Shown here piece after piece: positions 24,323-41,300 of a stretch of 64,000 nt of DNA (position 1 is its first letter; every line of letters begins with the position of its first letter). Source of the DNA: Rhodocyclaceae bacterium (GTDB taxonomy: Bacteria > Pseudomonadota > Gammaproteobacteria > Burkholderiales > Rhodocyclaceae); contig JAYRYZ010000001.1 of NCBI GenBank assembly GCA_041916775.1, forward strand, positions 295,825 through 359,824. The letters run 5' to 3'. A program made the translations under genes and the position numbers. Under the pieces are notes generated by a model. That model had not been told where the DNA came from. It was given only the letters and a program-made list of their open reading frames with translations, and searched no databases.

Positions 24323-25561
24323 ATGCCCGTGAATTACGCCACCCCCGCTCCGTCCGAACTCTTTCCGGTCGCCGGGGTGCGACTCGGCGTCGCCGAGGCA
24401 GGCATCCGCAAGCTCAATCGCCGCGATCTCACGCTCATCGAGCTCGCCGAGGGCAGCCGTGTTGCCGGCGTGTTCACGCTCAACCGCTTCTGTGCCGCGC
24501 CGGTGCAGGTGTGCCGTGCGCATCTGCCGCAGGGCAAGGTGCGCGCGCTGGTGATCAATACCGGGGTCGCGAACGCTGGCACGGGTGAGCCGGGGCTTGC
24601 GAACGCGCTTGCCACCTGTGCGGCTGTCGGCAATCTCATCGGCATCCCGGCCGAGGCGGTGCTGCCGTTCTCCACCGGCGTCATCCTCGAACCTCTTCCT
24701 GTCGATCGCCTCATCGCCGGCTTGCCCGCCGCGCATGCCAATCTCGCTGCAGACGGCTGGCACGCCGCGGCGCACGGCATCATGACCACCGACACGGTGG
24801 CCAAGGCGGTGTCGCGTCAGATCGAGCTGGATGGTCGCACCATCACCATCACCGGCATCAGCAAGGGCGCCGGCATGATCAAGCCGAACATGGCGACCAT
24901 GCTCGGCTTCCTCGCCACCGACGCCTGCGTGTCGCAAGCGCTGCTCGACGGTTTGACCAAGGAAGCAGCAGATCTGTCCTTCAACAGCATCACCATCGAC
25001 GGTGATACCTCCACCAACGACTCCTTCATCGTCATCGCCACCGGCGCCGCCGGCAATGCCGAGATCGCGGATCAAGCCTCCGAGGCCTTCAAGGTGTTGC
25101 GCGAGGCGGTCATCGATGTGTCGGTGAGGCTCGCGCAGGCCATCGTGCGCGACGGCGAGGGCGCGACCAAGTTCATGACCGTCGCGGTGGAAGGCGGCAG
25201 AACGCGCGAGGAGTGCCGCAAGGTGGCGTATGCGATCGGCCATTCGCCGCTGGTCAAGACCGCCTTCTTCGCTTCCGACCCCAACCTCGGGCGCATCCTC
25301 GCCGCGATCGGCTATGCCGGTATCGACGACCTCGACAGCGCCGCGCTGCGCGTGTGGCTTGCGAACGATGCCGAGTCGGTGCTGGTCGCCGAAAAGGGTG
25401 GCCGCGCCGCGAGCTATCAGGAGGAAGCCGGCGCCCGCGTGATGAAGGGGGCCGAGATCACCATCCGCGTCGACCTCGCCCGCGGCGATGCGGCGGCAAC
25501 CGTGTGGACCTGCGATTTCTCGTACGACTATGTGAAGATCAACGCGGATTACCGGTCGTGA
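24323..25561 (+). CDS. argJ: bifunctional glutamate N-acetyltransferase / amino-acid acetyltransferase ArgJ
   Basis: 412 aa; autoproteolytic ATML site ([15 protein letters not shown]) and overall ArgJ architecture; GGAG RBS. Confidence 0.9.
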
Positions 25562-25565
25562 TCGA

Positions 25566-28500
25566 CTATCTCGCCCGATCCCCGCTGCCGGGTGCGTCCG
25601 GACCGCCCGGCAGCAGGCCGCTCATGCGCTCGACCAGGCCGGACAGGCGCTTCATCTCGTCCCACATCGCGTGATCCATGCGCATCTTGCTGTAGGTGGC
25701 GGTGACCAGTGGTGCGATGACCTTCTCGTAGATCTCGTGCATCTCGCGTAGCGTGTCTGTGAGGCAGTCCACATTGGGCGGATCGATCTCGATGTGCGGC
25801 TCGATCGCACGGATGCCGGCGGCGAGCTCCGCCAGCCCTTCTCGCAGGCTGGTTTCGAGCGCTGGTGCGGCGCGCAGGCCTTCCACCGCGCGCGCGATGT
25901 CGAGCAGCGTGCCGGCGATGCGGGTGCTGCCGTCGGTGTCGTCGCCACCCAGCTTGCGCCGGCGCACGAACTCTTCCTTGATCTCCGTCCAGCGGGCCGT
26001 TTCCTCCGCGGTCTGGCTGCCGAGCAGTTCGGCGAGCCGCAGCAGGTTCTCCTCGGCGCCGCTGGTGAGCGTCTGCGCCTCACCGCGGTAGTGGTCGCGC
26101 AGCAACGCATCGAGCTCCTCGTCTCGCATGAGCGGGGTGATCGCGGTGGCGAGCTTGGCCATGTTGCGATAGCTGCCCTGCAGCTTGAATGGCGGCTCGT
26201 TGCGATAGGCGTCGTCCTGGGCGGCCGACTCGATGTAGGCAAGATTCACCTTCAGGAGCAGGTCGCGGGCGCGGAAGAGGCGCTTCACCAGGCTCGCGAG
26301 CTCGTTGAGCTCGGCGCTGCTGTAGCCGTGACTGAAGGCGCTGTCGGCGAGGTCCTCGCCCTCGGCGAGGCGCACCAGGCGATGCACATCGGCCGGGTCG
26401 CGCGAGGCGAGCGGCAGCAGCAGCGGGTTGGCGGTGAGGCTGTTCTCGATGTACGACAGCGCGAAGAGGTCCTCACGCCCGGCGAGGACGTCGCCCAGGT
26501 TGTAGATATCGGCGCGGTTGGCGAGCATGTCGGGGATCTTGAACACGTCGCCGGACTCGGTGTAGGGGTTGCCCGCCATCACCACCGCGAAGCGCTTGCC
26601 GCGAAGGTCGGCGGTCCATGGCGTGCCGTTCTGCACCGCCTCGATGCGGCGCGTGCCGTCGGCGAGCGCGATGAATTTCTGCAGGAACTCCGGGTTGGTG
26701 TGCTGGATGTCATCGAGATAGAGCATCACGTTGTTGCCCATCGCGAGTCCGAGGTTGAGCTTCTCGAGCTCCTGACGGGCGGCGCTGTGGGTGGCGCCGG
26801 CCGGGTCGATGGCGGTGACGTCGTGCCCCAGCGCCGGGCAATTGATGCGTACGAAGATCATGCCGAGGCGGTCGGCGACATACTCCATGAGCGTGGTCTT
26901 GCCGTAGCCTGGCGGCGAGATCAGCAGCAGCAGGCCGGAACGGTCGGAGCGGCTGGCATCGCCCGCGGCGCCGATCTGACGGGCGAGGTTGTTGCCGATG
27001 ATGGGCAGATACACCTCGTCGATGAGGCGGTTGCGCACGAAGGAGGACAGCGGCTTGGCGCGGAACTGGTCGAGCTGCAGGCGACGCTTCTCGTCCGCGA
27101 CGAGTTGCAGGCGCAAGGCCTGGAGGCGTTCGAAGGCGGGCACATGGGTCGCGCGATGCTGGCGGAAGCGGCGCCAGAAATCGTTGAGGTTGAGCGCAAG
27201 CGTGCCGCCTGCGATGCTGGCATGCTCACCCAGGAGGCCGGATACCACCTTGTCTAGCGCGACGTTGAGGCGTTTGCGCTCGCCGCTGCCCAGCCACAGC
27301 GTGGCGGCGTCCGGCACCCACGGCAGCAGCCGGTCGTGCGCCGCGCCTGACGCGTTGGCCGCCTGCTTGTCGGCCTCGGCATCGCGGTGTGCGGCAAAGG
27401 CCGAGAGCCATTGGCGTGCCAGCTGCCAACGCTCGGCCGGTGCAGCGGCTTCGAGGTCTGCACGCAGCTCGGCCAGCCGGGCACTGCGCTCCAGTTGGCG
27501 TTGCAAGTCCTCGCTCAGTGTCGCGCCGCTGCCGGCCACCACCCAGGCCTCATGGCCGCGCGGTTCGGCGATCTGTCGCACCAGGTATTGTGCCGCCTCC
27601 TGCAGCAGGGCCTCGTCCGGGGCGAAGCCGAACCCGGGCGCGAAGGTGGCGAGCTTGCGGGCCGCGTCCTGTTCCGCCTGCCGCAGCGCCGCGTCATGGC
27701 CGAACAGCGCGTGCATCTGCAGCGCGGCGCGCGCCTGGCGCTGCAGGCTGTCGCGGTCCTGCTCGAAGCCGCCGAACTGCCAGTAGCAGAACGCGAGCGC
27801 GCGCGCCTCCGGGCCGTAGGCGAGCAGTTGCGCGTCGGCCTGCATCACGACCAGCGCGCGCAGGAGCCAGGCCGCGTCATGGTCGTGCACACCGCGCTGG
27901 TAGCCTTCCTGATAGCGGCTGGCGCTGCTGCGGCGGACCAGATCGAGGAGCGGATCGTGGCCCTCGGCGGGGCTTGCGCAGAGCGCCTGCAGGCTTGCCC
28001 AGTCGATGTCGCCACGCCCTTCCAGCGCATCGACGAGCAGGCTGCCGGCGAGGTATTCGGCGCGGCAGAGGCCGCCGCTCTCGGAGACCAACGAGACATC
28101 CCACCACGGGCGCAACGCCTCCAGCGCGGCGTCGTTCGCGGGCGCGAAGTAGTCGGTGCCGGTGAGGTGGAAGGCGAGCCCGCCCTGGCGTGGGACCAGG
28201 GTAAGGTCCAGCGTCTGGCGGTTGACGGTGAAGGCGTGGCGGCCGAAGCGCAGCGTATTGCCGTCCTCGGCGACCAGCTCGCGGCGGTCGCGTACCGCGC
28301 GCACCGCCTGGTCGCGTGCGGTACGCAGGCGGGTGTCGAGGTCGTCGGCCGCGACGCTGGCGCCCAGCGCGCGCAGCTCGGCGATCTGGCTGCGGAGCTT
28401 GGTGAGCAGCGGATCACCGGCGAAATAGCTGTGCACCTGCTCCAGCTCGCCGAACTGTGCGATCCGGCGGGGAATGCCTTCCAGCACCCGTGCCGCCGCA

Positions 28501-30860
28501 TCGGCGAGGGCCTGGCTGCGGCGCTGGCGGGCCTCGCTGAGTGTCTGGCGGCGGGCCGCGACGGCTTCCACCAGCGCCTCGCGCTTGTTGGCGAGGGTTT
28601 CGATGAAGCCCTCCTGCTCGGCGAAGCGGCCCTCGATCTCTTCGAGCTGCGCGAGCAGGCGGGTCAGCGCGTCATCGCACTTCTCCGGGGTGTCGGCGAG
28701 CGCCAGCGCGTTCTCCACCGCCTGGCCGAAGAGCTGGATCTGCGCGCCGAACTCGGCGGCGGCTTCGCGGCTGCCGAGCGCACGGCCGAGCTTGCGTGCC
28801 TCGGCGCGCAGGCGATTCACCTCGGCATAGACCGCCCCGATGCCATCGAGGATGCGCGTGCGCAACAGCGCGTCGCCGCCGGGCAGGTTGCCGAGCTGCT
28901 CGGTGAGGAGGTCGAGGCCGCTGCCGGTGTCGTCCAGCAGCTTGACCTGCGCCGCGATCTCGCTGCTGTTCGCAGCCTGCGGCAGGGTGGCGGCGACCTG
29001 CGCGAGGGTGCTGCGGTAGCCGTCGAAGGCGTGCTCTTCCGACAGGAAGCGCAGGGCGCGCTCGGAGACGCGCTGCTGCGCCTCGTCCACCGCGGCTTCG
29101 AGCGCGGCGATACCGGGGATGTCGGCGTAGCGCAGCTCGCGCAGCATCTGCAGCCGTCCGCGTTGCTCGCGCAGCTGGCCGAGGGCGCGGACGAAGTCGT
29201 CCGGCTTCTGCCACAACATGCCGGCGATGCGGGTCATCAGCTCGCGCTGGGCCAGCTCGGCGGTGTCGAGTGCCTGTCGGGTGTCGCGGCGGATGCTCTC
29301 GATCTTCTCGAACTCGTCGAGCGTGTTGCGCGCGCCGTCCTGGATGGCGCGGACATCCTCGGCGAGCTTGCCGGCTTCATCCGAATCCAGCCAGAAGTAG
29401 GCGTCCAGCGCGCGGCCGCAGTGGCGGATGAGCGCGTCGTAGGCGTTGCGGGTCGGCGTCTGCTCGGCCACCGCGCGTGCGATCGCGGTGAGCTCGGCGA
29501 TGCCGCGCACCAGCTCAGGGTTGCCGATGCGGGCGAAGAAGCCCTGGCTGCTGCGCTCGGCGGTGGCGTGCTCCTCGCTCACGTAGGGTGTCTGCCAGAG
29601 CTGCATCGGGTGGTTGCGCGTGGCGTCCGGCCCCTCGGCCTGGAACACCAGCATGCGGCCATCCTCGAAGCGCGCGTAGCCGTTGCAGAGAATGGGCGTG
29701 GTGAGCGACTTCTCGATCAGGTTGTAGGAGAAGAGCGCGTAGTGGCCCACGCCGGGTTGGTAGAACACGTACAGCACGTCCTCGCCATTGGGCGAGCGCA
29801 GCATGCGCTTGAAGCGCAGCCCGTCGCGCATCTCGGCGGGCAGGTCGAAGCGCTTGGTCTCGCCCGACTGCAGGTAGTAGCCGCCGGGAAAGATGATGCC
29901 GTGATCCTCGGGCAGCTGGATGCACGAGCGGCCGATGGCATCGATGCGGGTGGCGGTGAGGGTGCGGGTGTTGAACACCAGGTAGCGCTCGTCCTTCTCG
30001 CGATACGGACGGATGCGCAGGAGGATCAGCGATCCGATGCGGGCGTAGGCGATCTCGGCATCGGTGAGCGACTGGCTCCTGTCCTCGACCGGCTCGGAAT
30101 AGATACCGAGGCCGGATTCGGTGTTGTTCTCGACCTTGATCGTGAGATCACCGCCGATCGTCTCGACGAACACGGTGTCGAGGATGTTCACATGCGGATG
30201 GCGCCCGCCGACATGGTTGTCGCGGGTGGTCTGGGTCCATTCGAAATCGTGCGTCGGGGGCAGGGCGATGTCGCGTTCGCCGCGATTGTCGATGTAGCTC
30301 AGACGCCCGCCCGGTTCGACGCTCCAGCGGAACACGCGCAGGTCGGTCGCCTGCTGGCCGATCTGGAACGCCGCCAGCAGCTTGTGCTGGTGCACACGCA
30401 GCTGGATCAGGCTGGCCTGCCTGTAATAGGTGTAGAGCTCGCGGAAATCGGCGACGAAGCGTGTGTCGTCGAGAAAGCTGCCGGCAATCGGCACGGCGAG
30501 CAGATCCTCGCTGCCCGGGCCGCCTTCCTCGTCCAACCGGTAGAGTCCGAACACGTCCGAGACCGCGGTCTCCTTGCGCAGTCCGATGAAGACGTTGTAG
30601 CCGAACAGCAGCAGGTCGCCGATGCGCACCAGGTCGCGGGCGATGCAGTTGTTCTCGGTACGTGCGCGGGTGCGCCCGATCAGCGCCTGCTCGGCGCGGC
30701 CGAACTCCTCCAGCCGCGCCGTGTTGAGCGCCGTGGTCTTGCGCAGCAGCTGGCCGCCGAGGTCGGTGAGGCGCTTCTTCAGCAGGGCATAGCTGCCGCT
30801 GTCGGCGACGAGCGCCTCGGTGGCGTCGGCTGCAACGGCGGCGCTGGCTTGGTCGGACAT
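25566..30860 (-). CDS. very large (1764 aa) conserved hypothetical protein with one AAA+ ATPase core of MoxR/AAA_5 type near the C-terminal third and long alpha-helical/coiled-coil central region
   Basis: single uninterrupted ORF; Walker A ISPPGYGKTTL, Walker B VMLYLDDIQ, sensor-like VVMAGNPYTESG...ADIY; about 330 aa of helical heptad-like sequence in the middle; antisense 1203-aa ORF judged spurious; last gene of the PspA/flotillin operon. Confidence 0.8.
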   Translation of the reverse strand: MSDQASAAVAADATEALVADSGSYALLKKRLTDLGGQLLRKTTALNTARLEEFGRAEQALIGRTRARTENNCIARDLVRIGDLLLFGYNVFIGLRKETAVSDVFGLYRLDEEGGPGSEDLLAVPIAGSFLDDTRFVADFRELYTYYRQASLIQLRVHQHKLLAAFQIGQQATDLRVFRWSVEPGGRLSYIDNRGERDIALPPTHDFEWTQTTRDNHVGGRHPHVNILDTVFVETIGGDLTIKVENNTESGLGIYSEPVEDRSQSLTDAEIAYARIGSLILLRIRPYREKDERYLVFNTRTLTATRIDAIGRSCIQLPEDHGIIFPGGYYLQSGETKRFDLPAEMRDGLRFKRMLRSPNGEDVLYVFYQPGVGHYALFSYNLIEKSLTTPILCNGYARFEDGRMLVFQAEGPDATRNHPMQLWQTPYVSEEHATAERSSQGFFARIGNPELVRGIAELTAIARAVAEQTPTRNAYDALIRHCGRALDAYFWLDSDEAGKLAEDVRAIQDGARNTLDEFEKIESIRRDTRQALDTAELAQRELMTRIAGMLWQKPDDFVRALGQLREQRGRLQMLRELRYADIPGIAALEAAVDEAQQRVSERALRFLSEEHAFDGYRSTLAQVAATLPQAANSSEIAAQVKLLDDTGSGLDLLTEQLGNLPGGDALLRTRILDGIGAVYAEVNRLRAEARKLGRALGSREAAAEFGAQIQLFGQAVENALALADTPEKCDDALTRLLAQLEEIEGRFAEQEGFIETLANKREALVEAVAARRQTLSEARQRRSQALADAAARVLEGIPRRIAQFGELEQVHSYFAGDPLLTKLRSQIAELRALGASVAADDLDTRLRTARDQAVRAVRDRRELVAEDGNTLRFGRHAFTVNRQTLDLTLVPRQGGLAFHLTGTDYFAPANDAALEALRPWWDVSLVSESGGLCRAEYLAGSLLVDALEGRGDIDWASLQALCASPAEGHDPLLDLVRRSSASRYQEGYQRGVHDHDAAWLLRALVVMQADAQLLAYGPEARALAFCYWQFGGFEQDRDSLQRQARAALQMHALFGHDAALRQAEQDAARKLATFAPGFGFAPDEALLQEAAQYLVRQIAEPRGHEAWVVAGSGATLSEDLQRQLERSARLAELRADLEAAAPAERWQLARQWLSAFAAHRDAEADKQAANASGAAHDRLLPWVPDAATLWLGSGERKRLNVALDKVVSGLLGEHASIAGGTLALNLNDFWRRFRQHRATHVPAFERLQALRLQLVADEKRRLQLDQFRAKPLSSFVRNRLIDEVYLPIIGNNLARQIGAAGDASRSDRSGLLLLISPPGYGKTTLMEYVADRLGMIFVRINCPALGHDVTAIDPAGATHSAARQELEKLNLGLAMGNNVMLYLDDIQHTNPEFLQKFIALADGTRRIEAVQNGTPWTADLRGKRFAVVMAGNPYTESGDVFKIPDMLANRADIYNLGDVLAGREDLFALSYIENSLTANPLLLPLASRDPADVHRLVRLAEGEDLADSAFSHGYSSAELNELASLVKRLFRARDLLLKVNLAYIESAAQDDAYRNEPPFKLQGSYRNMAKLATAITPLMRDEELDALLRDHYRGEAQTLTSGAEENLLRLAELLGSQTAEETARWTEIKEEFVRRRKLGGDDTDGSTRIAGTLLDIARAVEGLRAAPALETSLREGLAELAAGIRAIEPHIEIDPPNVDCLTDTLREMHEIYEKVIAPLVTATYSKMRMDHAMWDEMKRLSGLVERMSGLLPGGPDAPGSGDRAR

Positions 30861-30946
30861 GGTCGTTCGTTTCCGTTGGCGAGGTCGTCACTGAGCGGGC
30901 GCTGGCGGTCGCAGCACCCGCTCCGGATTGCGCATGGCGTGCGCGA

Positions 30947-33055
30947 CTACGGCTTGCCGCGGAAGCCGTCCAGCAGCGTCTGCAGTGCGGCCTTCTGACT
31001 GTCGTTGCCGTCGCGCAGCACCTTGGTCAGGAGTGCAGCGACCGAGAGGTTCTGCAGCTCGCCCGATGCGCCACCCAGCGCGCCGACGATGTCGCGCACG
31101 TCGCTCACCATGTCGCGCTCGCCATCGAGGTGATCCTTCAGGCCGATCTGCAGCGTCTGGCTCTTGGCGATCGCACCGTCTATGCCCTTGCCCACGGACA
31201 GCGCGTTGACGAAGCGGTCGAAGTAATCGCCCTGGCCGCCGACGATGTCGATCTTCGCGTTGGCGAGCGCAGTGCCGAGCACGTCCGCCTGCTCGCGGGC
31301 GATGGAGGTCTGGGCGTCGATGGCCTTGAGGGTCTCGACGTGCGCGTTCTCCAGGCGCATGCGGAATTCCTCGTGGGCGCGGGTGTCCTCGCTCATCGCC
31401 TTCATCGCCTCGAACTTCTCGCGCAGGCCCTTGGCCTCGGCGTTGAAGCGGGCCTCGACCACCTGCGCCTCGGCCAGTCCGATCTTGATCACCGCGTCGG
31501 CGTCGGCCGCCTTGACGCCGACATCGGCAAGCCCCATGCGCTCCTTGCCCTCGGCTTCGGCGCTCAGGCGCGCCTGCAGCGCTTCGGCTTCGGCATGGCC
31601 GTACTTCACCACCGCTTCGGCCTCGGCGATCTTCACCTTGGCATCGACCAGACCCTGCTTCTCGCGGGCGTCGGCGGTCACCATCATGACCTTCGCTTCG
31701 GCAAGACCCTCGGCCGCGGTCATGGCCTCGATGCCCTCTGCTTCGCGCTTCTTCGCCTCCGCCTGCTTCTCGGCGATCTTCAGGCGCGCCTCGGCCATCG
31801 TCAGCTCTTCGGACGCGGCGTGGCGGGCGCGGCGTTCGAGCGCTTCGGCGGCCTTGACCTCCATGATCATCTTTTCCTCGGCCTGGCCTTCGGCGAGAAT
31901 GATGGTCGATTTCTTGGTGCGATCGGCTTCGGCGAGCACGCGCAGCTCCTTGATCGCCTCTTCCTGTTCCGCGACGGTGCGCTCGACCACGATGCGCTCG
32001 CGCACCACGTCGGCGATCGCCTTCTTCTGCACCTCCACCGCACGATCCTTGTCGATGCGCTGCAGAGTGACTTCCTTCTCGCGGTCGACCACCTCCAGCT
32101 CACGTGCGCGGATGACCTTCTCTTCCTCGATCGCCACGGCGCGCAGGCGGTTGTTCTCGGCGACTTCCTTCTCGCGCAGCACGTTCTCCTGCTGCACGGT
32201 GATGAGCTGTTCGGCCTGCAGGCGGGCGAGCTCGGCCTTGGCGTGTTCTTCCGAGCGGATGCGTTGGGTTTCGGCCTGCTCGCGGGCCTTCACCGATTCG
32301 ACCTCGCGGGACTGGCGCGCCTCGGCGTCGGCCTGCTGGCGCTCGAGCTCGAGCAGCGCCTCGCGCGTCTCGACGTCCTTCTTCTTGATCTGCATCTCCT
32401 CGTTGCGACGCAGCTCGTTGGTGCGCACGTTTTCCGCGGCGGTGAGCTCGGTGATCTTCTTGATGCCCTGGGCGTCGAGGATGTTGCTCGGGTCGAGCTT
32501 GGAGAGCGGGGTTTGCTCGAGGTAGTCGATCGCCGCATCCTCCAGCACGTAGCCCGAGAGGTCGTCGCCGATCTGCGCGATGATCTCGTCGCGGAAGCGG
32601 TCGCGCGCCTGATAGAGCTCGACGAACTCCATCGACTTGCCCACCGTCTTGAGTGCCTCGGAGAACTTGGCGGAGAAGAGCTCCTCCAGCGTCTCGGGGT
32701 TGGAGGCGCGGGCGCAGCCGATGCCCTGCGCAACCTTGAGCACGTCCTCGGCGGTCTTGTTCACCCGCACGAAGAACTTCACCTTGATGTCGGCGCGGAT
32801 GTTGTCCTGGCAGATCAGTCCGTCGTGCCCGGTGCGGTCGATCTCGACCGTCTTGAGCGCGATGTCCATCATCTCGGCCTTGTGGATGATGGGATACACC
32901 ATGCGGCCGGTGAAGGTGACGTCCGGCTCGCTGTTGAGGGTGTTGACGATCATTGCGTAGCCTTGCTCGACCTTGCGGTAGAACTTCGCAAGCATCACGA
33001 ACAGGCTGAGCACGATGAAGGCCACGATGCCGGTGACGATCAGGATGAGCTCCAT
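30947..33055 (-). CDS. flotillin-family SPFH (band 7) protein, long form (702 aa) with extended Ala/Glu-rich coiled coil
   Basis: N-terminal TM MELILIVTGIVAFIVLSLFVMLA then SPFH domain (YRKVEQGYAMIV...) then several hundred aa of EA-repeat coiled coil; GGGGA RBS before ATG 33055; YqiK-like. Confidence 0.85.
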   Translation of the reverse strand: MELILIVTGIVAFIVLSLFVMLAKFYRKVEQGYAMIVNTLNSEPDVTFTGRMVYPIIHKAEMMDIALKTVEIDRTGHDGLICQDNIRADIKVKFFVRVNKTAEDVLKVAQGIGCARASNPETLEELFSAKFSEALKTVGKSMEFVELYQARDRFRDEIIAQIGDDLSGYVLEDAAIDYLEQTPLSKLDPSNILDAQGIKKITELTAAENVRTNELRRNEEMQIKKKDVETREALLELERQQADAEARQSREVESVKAREQAETQRIRSEEHAKAELARLQAEQLITVQQENVLREKEVAENNRLRAVAIEEEKVIRARELEVVDREKEVTLQRIDKDRAVEVQKKAIADVVRERIVVERTVAEQEEAIKELRVLAEADRTKKSTIILAEGQAEEKMIMEVKAAEALERRARHAASEELTMAEARLKIAEKQAEAKKREAEGIEAMTAAEGLAEAKVMMVTADAREKQGLVDAKVKIAEAEAVVKYGHAEAEALQARLSAEAEGKERMGLADVGVKAADADAVIKIGLAEAQVVEARFNAEAKGLREKFEAMKAMSEDTRAHEEFRMRLENAHVETLKAIDAQTSIAREQADVLGTALANAKIDIVGGQGDYFDRFVNALSVGKGIDGAIAKSQTLQIGLKDHLDGERDMVSDVRDIVGALGGASGELQNLSVAALLTKVLRDGNDSQKAALQTLLDGFRGKP

Positions 33056-33140: not shown

Positions 33141-33770
33141 TCAGGCCTCGGCCTGCACCCGGTAGCGTGCCGAGGCCGGGTCGTAGTCGATGATGATGGC
33201 CGTGCCACCGCGCTTGAGCGTGTTGGGCGAATCCGCCACGACCCGGATGTTGATCGATGCGCCGCCCGTCTCCACCTCGGCGCGGCCAAAGGATTCATCC
33301 ACCTTGCCGGTGAGGATGCGGCAGCTGCGCCCGACCAGCGAGGCGTTGGAGACTGCGCTGTGGGTGACGAACAGCCGGCGCATCGGGCGGATCGCGATCG
33401 CGGTGAGCGGGATCGACACCGTGATCGCCACGAGCAGCGCCACGGTGCCCGCAACGAGGCTCAGTATCGCGGTGGGAACCAGCGGCAGCAGCCACAGCCC
33501 GGCGGCGCAGGTGATCGTCCAGCCGGTCAGCACGAGCAGGCTGGCGACGATGGAGAACGGTACGCCACCCAGGCCGAAGGCCACCAGCTTCGCGGCGATC
33601 GAGTCGATCTCGCCGAGATCGGCATCTGCGTCGAGCTCGAGCGCAGGACCGCCGTGCTCGAAGTCGACGAGGCCAACCAGGGCCAGCAACCAGTAGATCA
33701 GCACCACCCCGAGCAGCACCGTGTAGATCGCGGCGGGATAGCTGATGACGACATCGGTGAGGCTGGGCAT
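33141..33770 (-). CDS. NfeD-like / YqiJ-like membrane protein (membrane helices + C-terminal OB-fold)
   Basis: 210 aa from Met at 33770; 3-4 hydrophobic helices then soluble beta-rich C-terminus (GRSCRILTGKVDESFGRAEVETGG...), the arrangement seen upstream of flotillin genes (yqiJ-yqiK). Confidence 0.7.
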   Translation of the reverse strand: MPSLTDVVISYPAAIYTVLLGVVLIYWLLALVGLVDFEHGGPALELDADADLGEIDSIAAKLVAFGLGGVPFSIVASLLVLTGWTITCAAGLWLLPLVPTAILSLVAGTVALLVAITVSIPLTAIAIRPMRRLFVTHSAVSNASLVGRSCRILTGKVDESFGRAEVETGGASINIRVVADSPNTLKRGGTAIIIDYDPASARYRVQAEA

Positions 33771-33822: not shown

Positions 33823-34176
33823 TCACGGTTCGCAGCCTGCATCGGCCGTGTTGCCGGCGCGTGACCGCGCAAAGGCGATCAAGGCCTCGGTGACGCGCTC
33901 CTTGATCGCGAGGCGGTCTTCGGCGGGAAGCCCGAAGCGCGCCGCCAGCAGCTGGTAGTCGGCCTCGGTGAGCGACACCGTGAGGCGCGGGCGCTTGGGT
34001 CGCCGCGTCACCGACAGACCGAGCAGCTGGCGGATCTGGTCCGGCGTCGACAGGTTGCTCTCGAACGCGGCGTGGCGTACCGCCTCCAGCACCGCGTTCT
34101 CGACATCGAAGGCCACCTGCACCGCGCGGATCGCAGCGTCCGAACCCTGCCAGCGGGCGGGTTTGTCGCGACTCAC
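33823..34176 (-). CDS. hypothetical 117-aa soluble protein, translationally coupled to pspA-like gene
   Basis: ATGA stop/start overlap with upstream PspA gene (34173-34176); no recognisable motif. Confidence 0.5.
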   Translation of the reverse strand: MSRDKPARWQGSDAAIRAVQVAFDVENAVLEAVRHAAFESNLSTPDQIRQLLGLSVTRRPKRPRLTVSLTEADYQLLAARFGLPAEDRLAIKERVTEALIAFARSRAGNTADAGCEP

Positions 34177-34874
34177 GCCGCCCCCTGATCCTTGCGTGCG
34201 CGGATGCGGGCCATCACCTGGCGCTTGCGCTCGGCGTCGCCGCCGATGCCGGCGTCGGCGAGCTTGGTCTCGAGCGCGCGGGTTCCGGTCTCCTTGTCCA
34301 ACGTCTCGGCCGCAGCGAGGCGGTCGGCCATCTCCTCGTGGCGGCGCTTGATGCGCTCCAGCGAGTCCTTGGCATTGGAGAGCTTGGAGCCGCTCGCGAC
34401 GATGCTGTCGGAGATCGAGCGGGTGGCCTTGTAGACGCTCTCGGTGGTGCGTGCCATCGCCACCTCGCGCTCGTGCTCGCGCACCTTGGTCTCGGCGGTG
34501 CTGATCATGTCCCTGAGCTTGCCGACCTGCAGGGCGTAATCTGCATGCGCGCGCGTCTGCTCGTCGAGCTCGGCTTCCGTGGCTGCGATCTTTGCGGCAA
34601 CTTCCTCGGCCAGGTCGTCGCGGCTCTTCTCCAGCGCCTCCAGCGCCAGGCCCTCGAGGCGGACGATCTCCTTGCGGATGCGCTCGATCTCGCGGGCGCT
34701 CTGCATCTCCTTCGCCATCACGCCGGTGAGGTCGTTCCTGGCCTTGAGGATGGCGTTGCGTGCGTCGATGATCTCCTGCTCGTAGATGCGGGTGGCGTTG
34801 GCGTCGACCACGCTCTCGCCGATTTCACGTGCGCTGCCGCGCACCAGGGTGAGGATCTTTCCCAAAACGCTCAT
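34173..34874 (-). CDS. PspA/IM30 (Vipp1/ESCRT-III superfamily) phage-shock-protein-A-like protein
   Basis: 233 aa all-helical, MSVLGKILTLVRGSAREIGESVVDANATRIYEQEIIDARNAILKARNDL... typical PspA/IM30 N-terminal helix and coiled coils. Confidence 0.85.
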   Translation of the reverse strand: MSVLGKILTLVRGSAREIGESVVDANATRIYEQEIIDARNAILKARNDLTGVMAKEMQSAREIERIRKEIVRLEGLALEALEKSRDDLAEEVAAKIAATEAELDEQTRAHADYALQVGKLRDMISTAETKVREHEREVAMARTTESVYKATRSISDSIVASGSKLSNAKDSLERIKRRHEEMADRLAAAETLDKETGTRALETKLADAGIGGDAERKRQVMARIRARKDQGAA

Positions 34875-34885
34875 GTTCGCCTCCT

Positions 34886-35302
34886 TCAGGCAAGGTAGTC
34901 CGACAGGGCCTCCAGCGCATCGAGGGCGTTGTCGCTCAGCGCGGCCACGTCCAGTGCGATGTCCTCCATGCGCGCGTCAGCGGACAGGGCGCCGAACAGC
35001 ACGTAGCGGTCATCGACCCTGCCGAACGACGACAAGGGGATGGACACGTTCAGGTCGAGCATCGCCTCGAGAAGCCCGGTACGCTTCGCCGGGGCGACCT
35101 CCAACTCGGTCCATAGGTAGCAGATGCAAAGGATCTGGGCGTCGGAGGTGGTGATGAAGATGGGCAGCTCGTTGCGTCCTTCGATCACCACCTGGATCAC
35201 CGGCACCTCGCCTGCAATGGGCTGCAGCTCGACGCCGACGCCCCCGAGCCTCGCGCCGACCAGTGTGTCTAGCCCTGCGATCCGTTGTTGCAACGTGTTC
35301 AT
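34886..35302 (-). CDS. 138-aa conserved hypothetical, first gene of the operon; tentative match to DUF2170/YjfI family that accompanies PspA-like YjfJ
   Basis: 11 nt upstream of the PspA-like gene; acidic soluble protein; family assignment from memory only, not verifiable here. Confidence 0.5.
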   Translation of the reverse strand: MNTLQQRIAGLDTLVGARLGGVGVELQPIAGEVPVIQVVIEGRNELPIFITTSDAQILCICYLWTELEVAPAKRTGLLEAMLDLNVSIPLSSFGRVDDRYVLFGALSADARMEDIALDVAALSDNALDALEALSDYLA

Positions 35303-35344
35303 CGCCTGTTCTCCCCTGACGTTTAGAAGTGCATCGACATGTGC

Positions 35345-35395
35345 AATCTAGGGAGTCTGACATAAGATGTCAAGACATTTTATGTCAGACTCCCT
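35345..35395 (-). promoter_or_regulatory. sigma70-type promoter TTGACA-N17-TAGATT (minus strand) embedded in a perfect 16-bp inverted repeat AGGGAGTCTGACATAA-N14-TTATGTCAGACTCCCT
   Basis: read on minus strand: TTGACA (35374-35369), 17-nt spacer, TAGATT (35350-35345), about 40 nt upstream of the operon ATG at 35302; IR arms 35350-35365 and 35380-35395; locally AT-rich in GC-rich DNA. Confidence 0.55.
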
Positions 35396-35573
35396 CCGTG
35401 CTGTTCCTGCTTGCCGTCCGCAAACAGCGCTTACGAAAGCCGGGATTATCTCATCGGCATGAACGAAGGTGGCGGAAGAATCGCGTGCGGTATTCCGTTG
35501 GCAAAGTCATTGCGGGTGTCTTTTCGCCTAGGCGGCTGGCAGGGCGCCCGACTGCCGCTGCCGTCCAGCCCGC

Positions 35574-38300
<2,727 letters not shown>

Positions 38301-38319
38301 GCTTGTCCTCCGTGCTTCG

Positions 38320-41300
38320 TCATTCGGCCCCCAGATTGCGCAACATTGTGCCGATGCTGCGCTCCGCGCGCGCGAAGTCGAAGCCGTCGAGCGCTGACAT
38401 GAGGATTCGCCATTCATCCAGGAGCGTTTGCGGCAGTGCGACTGCGATCGCCTCCAGGCGGGCCTCATCCACGAACTCGTGGTTGCGCGCGGCGTCGTGC
38501 AAGGACTTGAGTGCGCGCACCGGGTCGACTGCGGGCGGCACATCGCGCGCGCGCGAAGCTTTCGCGTCAGGCCGCGCCAGCCATGCGCAAATGGCACTGG
38601 TGGTGCGTACCAGGGTCGTCTCGAAGTCTGCGATCGCCTGCGGCGACGGTAGGAGCCCGGACTTGAGTGCCTCGTCGAGCGTCGCTGTTGCCGACGCGAG
38701 CGGGGCAAGTGCCAGGTTGCCTGCAACGCCTTTGAGGCTGTGTGTGTGTTGCTGCAGTGCGGCCCGGGTGGCCGGCGAGGGGGCGGCCGACAGCGCGACG
38801 AGTTGCTGCGGCAAGGCCGCGTAGGTGCCGCGGAGCTGCGTCAGCAGCTCATCCAACAGGCGTTCATACAGGGCTTGGTTGCCGTCCAGCATGGCCACGC
38901 CAAGAGTCGGCGAGAAGAGTGCCTCGACGGCCAGTGTTGCGGATTGCCCGGAAGTAGGCGCGGAACAGGGCCCGGGGACGTCGGCAGGGGGCATCCTCGG
39001 GCCGGCGGACGTCTCTGCCGCTGCGGGTAGCCAGCGCGCGAGCGTGGCATGCAGCGCGACCGGGTCTATCGGTTTGCCGAGGTGATCGTTCATGCCGGCG
39101 GCACGTGCCTTGAGCTTGTCGTCCGACATCACAGCCGCAGTGAGCGCGATCACCGGCAGGGTGAAACCGTGGGCACGTAGCCGGCGAGTCGCCTCGTACC
39201 CGTCCATGATCGGCATCTGGATGTCCATGAGGACCAGATCGAAGCTGCCCTTCTCGGTCTCCTGGAGTGCCTCCCAGCCGTTGCGCGCGGTCACGACTTC
39301 AAGGCCCAGGGCGCGTAGCTGTGCAGTGGCCACCTCCTGGTTGATCGCGTGGTCCTCGACCAGCAGCACCCGGCCGACGAGCCGGCGAAGCGACAGGCCG
39401 TCGCCGGCGCTGCGCGCGAGCAGCGCGCGCATCTCCTCGGCGCTGCAGCGCCCGAGTGCAAGCGTGAAGCTGAAGGCTGCACCCTGGTTGGATGCGCTCG
39501 CGAGTTCGATGCCTTCTCCGCCCATCGCCTCCACCAACCTCTGGCTGATTGCAAGCCCGAGGCCGGTGCCGCCGTGCTCGCGGGTGATGGAGGCGTCTGC
39601 CTGCTTGAATGCCTGGAATAGCCGCGGTTGTTGTGCCGGGTCGATGCCGATGCCGGTGTCGCTGACGCTGAAGCGGAGCCGGTCGGCGACGCCATCCGTC
39701 GAGTCGCACTCCACCTGCACGATGACCTGGCCGTGATCGGTGAACTTGATCGCATTACCGATCAGGTTGGTGAGGATCTGGCGGATCCGAAGTTCGTCGC
39801 CGACGTAGCCCGGTGCAGCCTCGGGCGCTACGACCAGCGCGAGCTGCAGCCCCTTTGCGCTGGCCATGGGTTCGAACAGGTCGCGCAGGGCGTCGATCAG
39901 CACCGCGAGGAAGAAGGGCTGTGGGGCGATCGCCAGTTTGCCCGCTTCGATGCGCGAGAAATCGAGGATGTCGTTGAGGATGCCAAGCAGCAGTTGGCCG
40001 GACTGGTGGATCTTCTGCAGCGCTGCGCGTAGCGCGGCTGGGTCGCGCTCGCCGGCTGCCAGCTGACTGAGGCCGATGATCGCGTTCATCGGCGTGCGAA
40101 TCTCATGGCTCATGTTGGCGAGGAACGCCGACTTGGCCAGGTTGGCCTCGTCTGCCGCCAGCCTGGCGGCCTCGAGCGCGTGTTCGGCTTCCTTCTGCAC
40201 CGTGACGTCGCGACCGCTTCCGCGGTAGCCGGTCAGCGAACCCGCGTCATCCAGCGTCGGGAAGCCGTCCGTGGACATCCACACGATATGCCCGTCCTTA
40301 TGCACGACCGGATTGACCATGCCCTTGATCGACTGCCGCGCCTCCATCAGCTGCATGGCTGTCTGTGCAAACGCGCTACGTCCGGCCTCGGGGTGGAGTT
40401 CGAAGAAGTGCCGTCGGCCGACCAGCTCATCGCGGCGAAAGCCCCACACGGCCTCACAGACGGGGCTTACGTAGGTGTAGAGGCCGTCGCGGTTCACCTC
40501 CCAGCTGACGGTGCCACTCTGCGCGGCGAGTTGCATCAGGCGAAGTTCGTTGTCGGCGATGGCCTGTTGCGCGCGCTTGAGCTCGGAGATGTCCTGCACG
40601 AAGGACCAGATCACCGGCCGGCCTTCGCTGGTGGTGGTGCCGAACCCCTGCACGAGTACCGGGTAGCGGCTGCCGTCCTTTCTGACGAAGGTGCGCTCGA
40701 AGGGGCCGAAGCGCCCGCTTCGCTCGAGCGCCTGGCGCTGCAGCGCCTCCTGGTCTGCATCGCCTGCAGGCGCGATATCGTTGGGGTGGAGCTGTGCGAA
40801 CGCCTCGGCCGTGTATCCGGCGGGTTCGTTGATGGCAGCGTTGAACTCGAGGAGGGCGCCGCTGAGCTGGTCGTTCATCGCAATGCCCACCGGTGCGTTC
40901 TCGAACAGGTTGCGGAACTTGGCCTCGGCGGACTTGAGCTGGGTGATGTTGGTGTGGGTGCCGAGCATGACCGCGGGGCGGCCGTCCTCATCCCACTCGA
41001 CCACGCGTCCGCGGCTCTCGACCCAGACCCACTCGCCGTGTGCGCTGCGCAGGCGAAAGGCGGTGCTGAAGGCGTTGTCGCGCGCGATGCTATCGGTGGC
41101 CTCGTCGAGCACCCGCGCGCGATCCTCCGGATGCAACTGTTCGGTGAACACGGCGATGTCGAGCGTGAAGGCGTCGGGCGGATAGCCGAGCTGGCGGAAG
41201 GCGCGCGCCGACCACTCGACCTTGTCCGAGCGCAGGTCCCAACGCCACATGCCGGTGTCGGAAGCCTCCATCGCGAGTTCCAGGCGCAGCTTGGTGTCTT

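Follow-up and report, generated by a model that had tools for sequence, protein, structure and literature searches.

The window analysed here, a stretch of 64,000 nucleotides from a Rhodocyclaceae bacterium, carries at 25566..30860 on the minus strand a complete gene for a 1764-residue AAA+ ATPase of the DUF3686 family (a BacE/PA3728 orthologue). The gene is one ATG-initiated ORF of 1764 codons, and the original prediction of a real and intact protein is borne out: a protein with 100% identity is present in public collections (P0001), and more than 6000 homologues align full length, over 98-100% of the ATPase; the gene is neither an artificial fusion nor several genes run together by frameshifts. 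The GC content of the gene region is 67-70%. A 1203-residue ORF on the opposite strand (27387-30998, plus) was dismissed as a shadow ORF of GC-rich DNA, since all of the homology sits in the minus-strand frame. The predicted single nucleotide-binding site likewise stands, with exactly one P-loop (residues 1315-1322) and one Walker B motif (residues 1379-1384) in a motif scan, as does the predicted lack of a membrane helix: the most hydrophobic 19-residue window has a Kyte-Doolittle value of only 1.29, and therefore no such helix is predicted.

The statement that the protein matched no nameable family was wrong, since Pfam DUF3686 is matched from end to end and the homologues bear names, although the family itself is uncharacterised. 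Residues 38-489 align to profile positions 2-448 of 448 in DUF3686 (PF12458; E = 1e-197; 657.6 bits, cut-off 25), and residues 610-690 match DUF7902 (PF25472; E = 6e-21; 75 bits, cut-off 26). The homologues are 1600-1820 residues long, have identical precomputed domains, and are called 'DNA repair ATPase' by NCBI and 'MoxR-like ATPase' by JGI; the Pfam label of PF12458 reads 'ATPase involved in DNA repair'. Each of three homologue searches gave more than 6000 matches at E ≤ 1e-5 or better among 8000 scored candidates, and an exhaustive HMMER search with the N-terminal domain returned 715 clusters (50% identity). The full-length matches have this domain N-terminally in a protein of 1600-1900 residues, and it therefore appears to be restricted to the giant-ATPase architecture. 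At least 597 species carry a relative of the ATPase, with one genome scanned per species; the family also occurs in pathogens, P. aeruginosa and Stenotrophomonas among them. Literature searches for DUF3686, PF12458 and DUF7902 found no papers, no work on the biochemistry or genetics of a family member, and nothing backing the name 'DNA repair ATPase', which is probably misleading. The ATPase is an ordinary orthologue within this family, which is catalogued and whose operon context has been published.

The domain layout follows from two AlphaFold2 models, built from alignments of 106 sequences, in which betaproteobacterial homologues are mixed with actinobacterial ones (mean pLDDT 84.5 for residues 1-1200 and 85.5 for residues 861-1764). 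All of the domains, motifs and operon genes given below lie on the minus strand. The DUF3686 region (residues 20-440, 29541..30803) consists of an N-terminal helix, residues 22-53, and a beta-rich domain of about 26 strands, approximately residues 59-423, for which a profile search against the PDB gave no match and a comparison of putative blades with hhalign gave no internal repeats. It is followed by an all-alpha arm of long helices and helical bundles (residues 441-865, 28266..29540), modelled as 13 helices over residues 441-862, the longest of 45-58 residues, and containing DUF7902 (residues 610-690, 28791-29033). The middle domain (residues 866-1250, 27111..28265) comprises a small beta unit, residues 869-907, and a helical domain up to about residue 1250, mostly with pLDDT above 90; a long connecting helix spans residues 1225-1261. 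It is the least conserved domain of the protein, at 28-53% identity, and has no match in Pfam or in PDB profile searches; neither this domain nor the N-terminal one recognisably resembles, in structure or in sequence, anything from which a ligand could be guessed. The middle domain does contain an invariant motif, R982-x3-G986-Y987-x2-G990-x-H992-D993-x-D995, and its HDxD could be the mark of a second activity. The protein ends in a helical tail (residues 1601-1764, 25569..26060; pLDDT 45-80), and the last 120 or so residues are poorly conserved in the conservation profile.

The AAA+ module (residues 1251-1600, 26061..27110) is the most conserved part of the ATPase. Its AlphaFold2 bounds are residues 1276-1575, with helices from there to the C-terminus, and it contains helix alpha0, Walker A and B, a pre-sensor-1 beta-hairpin seen in the model, sensor 1, the putative arginine finger, and a lid into which about 90 residues are inserted ahead of sensor 2. 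The Walker motifs, whose conservation the original prediction had proposed to check, are kept throughout 34 diverse homologues from at least five phyla: the Walker A sequence SPPGYGKT (residues 1315-1322, 26895..26918) is invariant, as are K1321, D1383, D1384, N1431, R1449 within IPDMLANR and R1565 within QGSYRNM. K1321 is read as the Walker A lysine, D1383 and D1384 as Walker B (MLYLDD, residues 1379-1384, 26709..26726; of the form hhhhDD and not DE, inside an invariant DDIQH), and N1431 as sensor 1. The stretch VMAGNPYTESGDVFKIPDMLANR (residues 1428-1449, 26514..26579), with N1431 and R1449, has the form NP..E.G..F.IP....NR, which we take to resemble the MoxR pattern, and the invariant QGSYRNM (residues 1561-1567, 26160..26180) presumably corresponds to the G(S/T)PR motif of sensor 2; from position and this likeness to MoxR and RuvB motifs, R1449 is the candidate arginine finger and R1565 the candidate sensor-2 arginine. 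With the residues of nucleotide binding and hydrolysis invariant, the protein looks competent as an ATPase, although the DD form of Walker B could point to a switch-like, weakly hydrolysing enzyme and not to a motor. The beta2-alpha2 loop (CPALGHDVTAIDPAG; CPALGHDVTAIDPAGATHS) has no aromatic pore-loop residue, a feature that is conserved in the homologues and that, like the DD of Walker B and the lid insertion, is unusual.

As to the class of the module, the nearest structural matches of the fold are CbbQ, NorQ, midasin and dynein, the first two at the top. In sequence, the Pfam families AAA_22, AAA and AAA_5 match residues 1307-1440 weakly but above their cut-offs (AAA_5 marginally, at 24.3 bits against 22), whereas AAA_3 stays below its own (15.6 bits against 27), and PDB searches with the full protein and with a profile of the module reached no further than the P-loop region of Rix7, p97 and RuvB. 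The original prediction of a dynein/MoxR-type core was thus roughly right as to the class of ATPase, its error being the absent family: the module belongs with the MoxR/dynein proteins as a divergent relative, and it is probably not a bona fide MoxR because AAA_3 remains sub-threshold, a partner gene with a VWA domain is absent from the operons of the window and of L081, and about 1250 residues lie ahead of the module.

The genetic setting of the ATPase points towards the membrane. Its gene is the last of a tightly spaced six-gene membrane-stress operon, which starts with a DUF2170/YjfI-like (CesT/Tir-like) gene (34886..35302; PF09938, E = 4e-30; orthologue of BacA/PA3732) and continues with a PspA/IM30 homologue (34173..34874; PF04012, E = 2e-32; orthologue of BacB/PA3731). 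The next gene, a 117-codon ORF (33823..34176) whose start overlaps the pspA stop, is possibly a ribbon-helix-helix regulator, judged by inspection of its sequence, and is followed by a 209-residue YqiJ/short-NfeD-like membrane protein with three transmembrane segments and a beta-rich C-terminus (33141..33770; orthologue of BacC/PA3730); neither of the two has a match in Pfam, NCBIfam or PDB searches. Between the latter and the ATPase lies the gene for a flotillin-like SPFH protein of 702 residues (30947..33055; orthologue of BacD/PA3729), with an N-terminal transmembrane segment, a Band_7 domain and long helices rich in Glu, Ala and Lys. A Pfam scan of the full-length flotillin-like protein gave no match, and Band_7 was found only with the first 230 residues scanned alone (E = 6e-10; Flot is weak, at E = 0.023). 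Upstream of the DUF2170 gene, a sigma-70-like site, TTGACA-17-TAGATT (35373-35345), lies in a palindrome with 22-nucleotide arms (35345..35395) and is the only such site in the 25-36 kb region; together they form the probable promoter and operator of the operon, and related GACATnnTATGTC palindromes are located upstream of the DUF2170 gene also in loci L009, L016, L018 and L029. A search for a sigma-54 promoter (TGGCAC-N5-TTGC-like, up to two mismatches) on the minus strand of 35303-35573 found none. On its other side the ATPase gene faces a convergent argJ, the two stop codons being 4 nucleotides apart, and then secA, a DciA-like gene and ftsZ.

The same arrangement recurs far beyond the window. 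In the 80 best loci of the at least 597 species with a relative, drawn from Beta- and Gammaproteobacteria, Zetaproteobacteria, Myxococcota, Actinomycetota, Eremiobacterota and a MAG labelled as Clostridia, the flotillin gene stands directly upstream of the ATPase gene and on the same strand in 69 of the 71 loci with enough flanking sequence, and 67 of 68 loci have a YqiJ/NfeD-like gene. By comparison, PspA (31/68) and DUF2170 (37/68) are facultative, and a small ORF of the 117-residue type occurs in 15/68. The conserved core is therefore NfeD-flotillin-ATPase, with DUF2170-PspA as an optional add-on. The counts over 68-71 loci agree with Ravi et al. 2024 (PMC11237479), who described abbreviated flotillin-YqiJ-ATPase operons as more widespread and arrived independently at an equal contextual reading. 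Genes recurring downstream of the ATPase in other loci encode a PLD-like HKD protein (7 of the examined loci, plus P. aeruginosa), a rhomboid protein, an MscK-like channel and, in Xanthomonadales, a 258-residue protein; the PLD-like, rhomboid and MscK-like genes are also membrane-related.

A P. aeruginosa locus, L081, links the window to experimental data. It runs in the order DUF2170, PspA, a 213-residue gene, a 688-residue gene, the DUF3686 giant, PLDc_2, YaeQ, RecJ and LasB, and by this gene order the giant (P0402, 1746 residues, 3222 member sequences) is PA3728/PA14_16190, that is BacE, and the PLD protein is BacF; the cluster bacABCDEF is known as the 'biofilm-associated cluster'. The window ATPase is 48% identical to its L081 counterpart over the full length, and five window proteins are collinear with their L081 orthologues at 29-56% identity. 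In PA14, RT-PCR joins bacD to PA14_16190, which is co-transcribed with bacA-D (Wallart et al. 2024, PMC10948618), and in a bacA mutant the PA14_16190 protein is increased 8.9-fold along with BacB, BacC and BacD (PMC10948618). The published reverse primer for bacD/16190 (PMC10948618) encodes PKNNCI, which holds the invariant NNC of the family (residues 70-72). PA14_16160 has been named a short NfeD, and deletion of the flotillin paFlo3 in PA14 gave only marginal phenotypes (PMC13086221). In the literature searched, no paper assigns a function to BacE, and PA3728 is otherwise mentioned only where genes with mutations in cystic-fibrosis isolates are listed.

Since its gene almost always directly follows that of a flotillin, the ATPase most likely acts on membrane scaffolds and not on DNA, and the name 'DNA repair ATPase' is contradicted by the gene context. 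The reading that we favour, with a confidence somewhat above even, is a ring-forming remodeller of the flotillin/NfeD scaffold and, where present, of PspA. For its oligomeric state, its substrate and the direction of remodelling, we infer the following. The giant ATPase would be cytoplasmic and would oligomerise, probably as a hexamer, through the C-terminal MoxR/dynein-like AAA+ module, with each subunit sending out a helical-bundle arm, about 860 residues in length, with the DUF3686 beta-domain at its tip. The arms and beta-domains would engage the cytoplasmic part of the flotillin/NfeD assembly, and ATP binding and slow hydrolysis would then remodel the scaffold on the inner membrane face, be it by assembly, disassembly or turnover; a PspA polymer, where there is one, would be remodelled too. 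ATP would in this way be spent on assembling, reshaping or recycling scaffolds during membrane stress. CbbQ, NorQ, midasin and dynein are remodellers of complexes and not processive unfoldases, and a pore loop devoid of an aromatic residue is consistent with such a role for the ATPase. Against this reading speak the marginal phenotypes of the paFlo3 deletion, the N-terminal and middle domains without ligand-suggesting relatives, the invariant HDxD motif and the DD form of Walker B. The tight pairing with flotillin and NfeD gives a concrete lead on how bacterial flotillin scaffolds assemble or recycle. A bolder version, which we regard as possible but rather doubtful, sees in the ATPase a dedicated ATP-driven machine for the assembly and disassembly of flotillin (SPFH) cages, in the DUF3686 beta-domain a new flotillin- or NfeD-binding fold, and in HDxD a second active or regulatory site. 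If true, energy-dependent regulation of a flotillin scaffold would be known for the first time, and the ATPase would stand to flotillin as Vps4 does to ESCRT-III or NSF to SNAREs.

The closest competitor keeps the remodelling activity and narrows the substrate: the ATPase would be a PspA-specific disassemblase, the bacterial equivalent of Vps4, with an ESCRT-III-like polymer as its target and flotillin merely as its membrane anchor. Such a role is unlikely, as it is weakened by the optional presence of PspA, which less than half of the loci contain (31/68 as given above). Still less probable is the core of a conflict or anti-phage system of the abortive-infection kind, where the scaffold would sense a perturbation of the envelope and the ATPase would activate an effector such as the PLD protein. 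Giant NTPases with helical arms are common among defence systems, PLD-like genes do follow the ATPase gene in the loci counted above, and one of the PLD proteins has a sub-threshold match to Effector-associated domain 1 (20.1 bits against 24.2, E = 9e-4). However, the full protein has no significant match in PADLOC-DB v2, LmuB being matched on the helical region only and IetA, the best match of the AAA region (E = 0.008), on the P-loop only. The effector gene (bacF) is moreover missing in the window, where the convergent argJ takes its place, and in most loci; the ATPase gene sits amid the housekeeping genes ftsZ, secA and argJ; and flotillin and NfeD are near-universal partners while PLD is not. 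The negative PADLOC result and the optional PLD gene thus weaken a function in defence. A canonical MoxR-type maturation chaperone, inserting cofactors or activating enzymes via an adaptor with a VWA domain, is very improbable. The top structural matches CbbQ and NorQ, the AAA_5 score just over the Pfam threshold and the JGI name agree with it, yet none of the operon genes in the window or in L081 encodes a VWA domain. Least credible of all is an SMC/Rad50-like coiled-coil ATPase acting in DNA repair, since beyond the Pfam and NCBI name it has only weak, coiled-coil-driven matches to LmuB (PADLOC, E = 1.7e-4) and Rad50 (NCBIfam, E = 8e-4; 17.8 bits, the cut-off being 1087, over helical residues 503-784 only), the NCBIfam scan of the whole protein having no match above threshold. 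A single AAA+ fold holds both Walker motifs, with 60 residues between them, whereas in an SMC/Rad50 ABC head Walker A is N-terminal and the signature motif and Walker B are C-terminal, an antiparallel coiled coil with a hinge or hook lying between. Pfam and NCBIfam scans show no domain of a nuclease or helicase and none that binds DNA, the conserved neighbours are all membrane proteins, and no supporting paper was found in the literature. The remaining probability falls to some explanation other than the scaffold remodeller and these four.

Among known AAA+ systems, the MoxR proteins (CbbQ, NorQ, RavA) and the midasin/dynein AAA_5 group are the nearest, from which the window ATPase differs by the missing VWA partner, a single AAA module placed behind about 1250 residues, the DD in Walker B, the lid insertion of about 90 residues and the sub-threshold AAA_3 match; its sequence profile reaches only the P-loop region, where it matches the classical-clade Rix7 and p97. 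Classical-clade unfoldases such as Vps4, p97 and FtsH have an aromatic-hydrophobic-Gly pore loop 1 and no pre-sensor-1 hairpin, and the window ATPase is the opposite on both counts. A functional precedent for the pairing of flotillin with an ATPase is provided by HflK/C, a cage of SPFH proteins at the bacterial inner membrane that pairs with an AAA+ machine, the protease FtsH. The likeness does not go beyond function, as FtsH is a membrane-anchored protease of the classical clade, whereas the window ATPase would be a soluble protein of another AAA+ group and has no protease domain. Much closer is the bac operon of P. aeruginosa: BacE shares the Pfam architecture DUF3686, DUF7902 and AAA with the window ATPase, and BacA-D are 29%, 39%, 31% (BacC, E = 1e-23) and 56% identical to their window orthologues. 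The window operon differs in having no gene for BacF (PLD), in the extra 117-codon ORF between pspA and nfeD, and in its sigma-70-like promoter with a palindrome, instead of which a sigma-54 site has been proposed in P. aeruginosa. Finally, both the composition of the operon and the architecture of its proteins are equal to those of the CesT-PspA-flotillin-YqiJ-AAA+ operon class (Ravi et al. 2024, PMC11237479).

Expression of the operon in the window is probably governed from a single region upstream of the DUF2170 gene (35345-35395, minus strand). The only sigma-70-like promoter upstream of this gene, TTGACA-17-TAGATT, is overlapped by a near-perfect palindrome with two 22-nt arms (35350-35371 and 35374-35395) that are 95% complementary. 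Similar GACATnnTATGTC palindromes are also found 5′ of the DUF2170 gene in four related loci of other genomes (L009, L016, L018 and L029), all of which carry the 117-aa ORF. Three loci of the Pseudomonas type that were inspected (L019, L021 and L033) have neither such a palindrome nor this ORF. The 117-codon ORF itself (33823-34176, minus strand) separates pspA from the NfeD-like gene, with its start overlapping the pspA stop codon (ATGA), and is kept in 15 of the 68 related loci at 34-76% identity. Its product has no matches in Pfam, NCBIfam or the PDB; judged by eye, its sequence resembles a tandem ribbon-helix-helix protein (for example in RLTVSLTEADYQLLAARFG), and because of this resemblance it is a candidate repressor that would act on the 35350-35395 palindrome. 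Directly upstream of the operon and on the same strand is the gene for a 1050-aa hybrid sensor (35574-38726), with PAS, HisKA, HATPase_c and GGDEF domains and two receiver-domain matches. At the opposite end, the stop of the giant ATPase gene (minus strand, ending at 25566) is separated by 4 nt from that of the convergent argJ (plus strand, ending at 25561), and no hairpin resembling a terminator was seen in this gap.

Within the giant ATPase, the middle domain contains a RYxEGYxxGxHDxD motif (residues 982-995; 27896-27937, minus strand) that is invariant from Betaproteobacteria to Actinomycetota and may represent a second functional site. Outside the motif this is the least conserved domain of the protein, with 28-53% identity, and searches returned neither structural nor sequence relatives for it. 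The Walker B motif (26709-26726, minus strand), an hhhhDD within an invariant LDDIQH, ends in DD instead of the usual DE, which may point to slow, switch-like hydrolysis; the LDDIQH string is similar to the DnaA/DnaC-type Walker B.

The flotillin-like protein (30947-33055, minus strand) gave no matches to Pfam or NCBIfam at full length, and Band_7 was recovered (E=6e-10) only when the N-terminal 230 residues were scanned alone. The E/A/K-rich helical region likely triggers the HMMER composition filter and thereby hides the domain, and for this reason the protein may escape automated annotation.

In other genomes, several genes recur immediately 3′ of the ATPase gene (e.g. L021 14253-14819, L046 14262-15038 and L060 14482-17970). 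A rhomboid protease and a 258-aa protein without a family match, the latter confined to Xanthomonadales, occupy this position in six loci each, and an MscK-like mechanosensitive channel in two; the rhomboid and the channel, the two with family matches, are both membrane proteins. A PLD-like (HKD) gene also follows the ATPase (L004 14195-14911, L019 14219-15499 and L081 12260-12952), and the N-terminus of the L004 protein matches Effector-associated domain 1 (PF19955) below threshold, at 20.1 bits where the cut-off is 24.2, which hints faintly at a link to conflict systems. Compared with the P. aeruginosa bac locus (L081), the window operon has no sigma-54 site on the minus strand between 35303 and 35573, upstream of its DUF2170 gene, whereas a sigma-54 promoter has been proposed for bacA, and the PLD-like gene downstream of the ATPase in P. 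aeruginosa is BacF.
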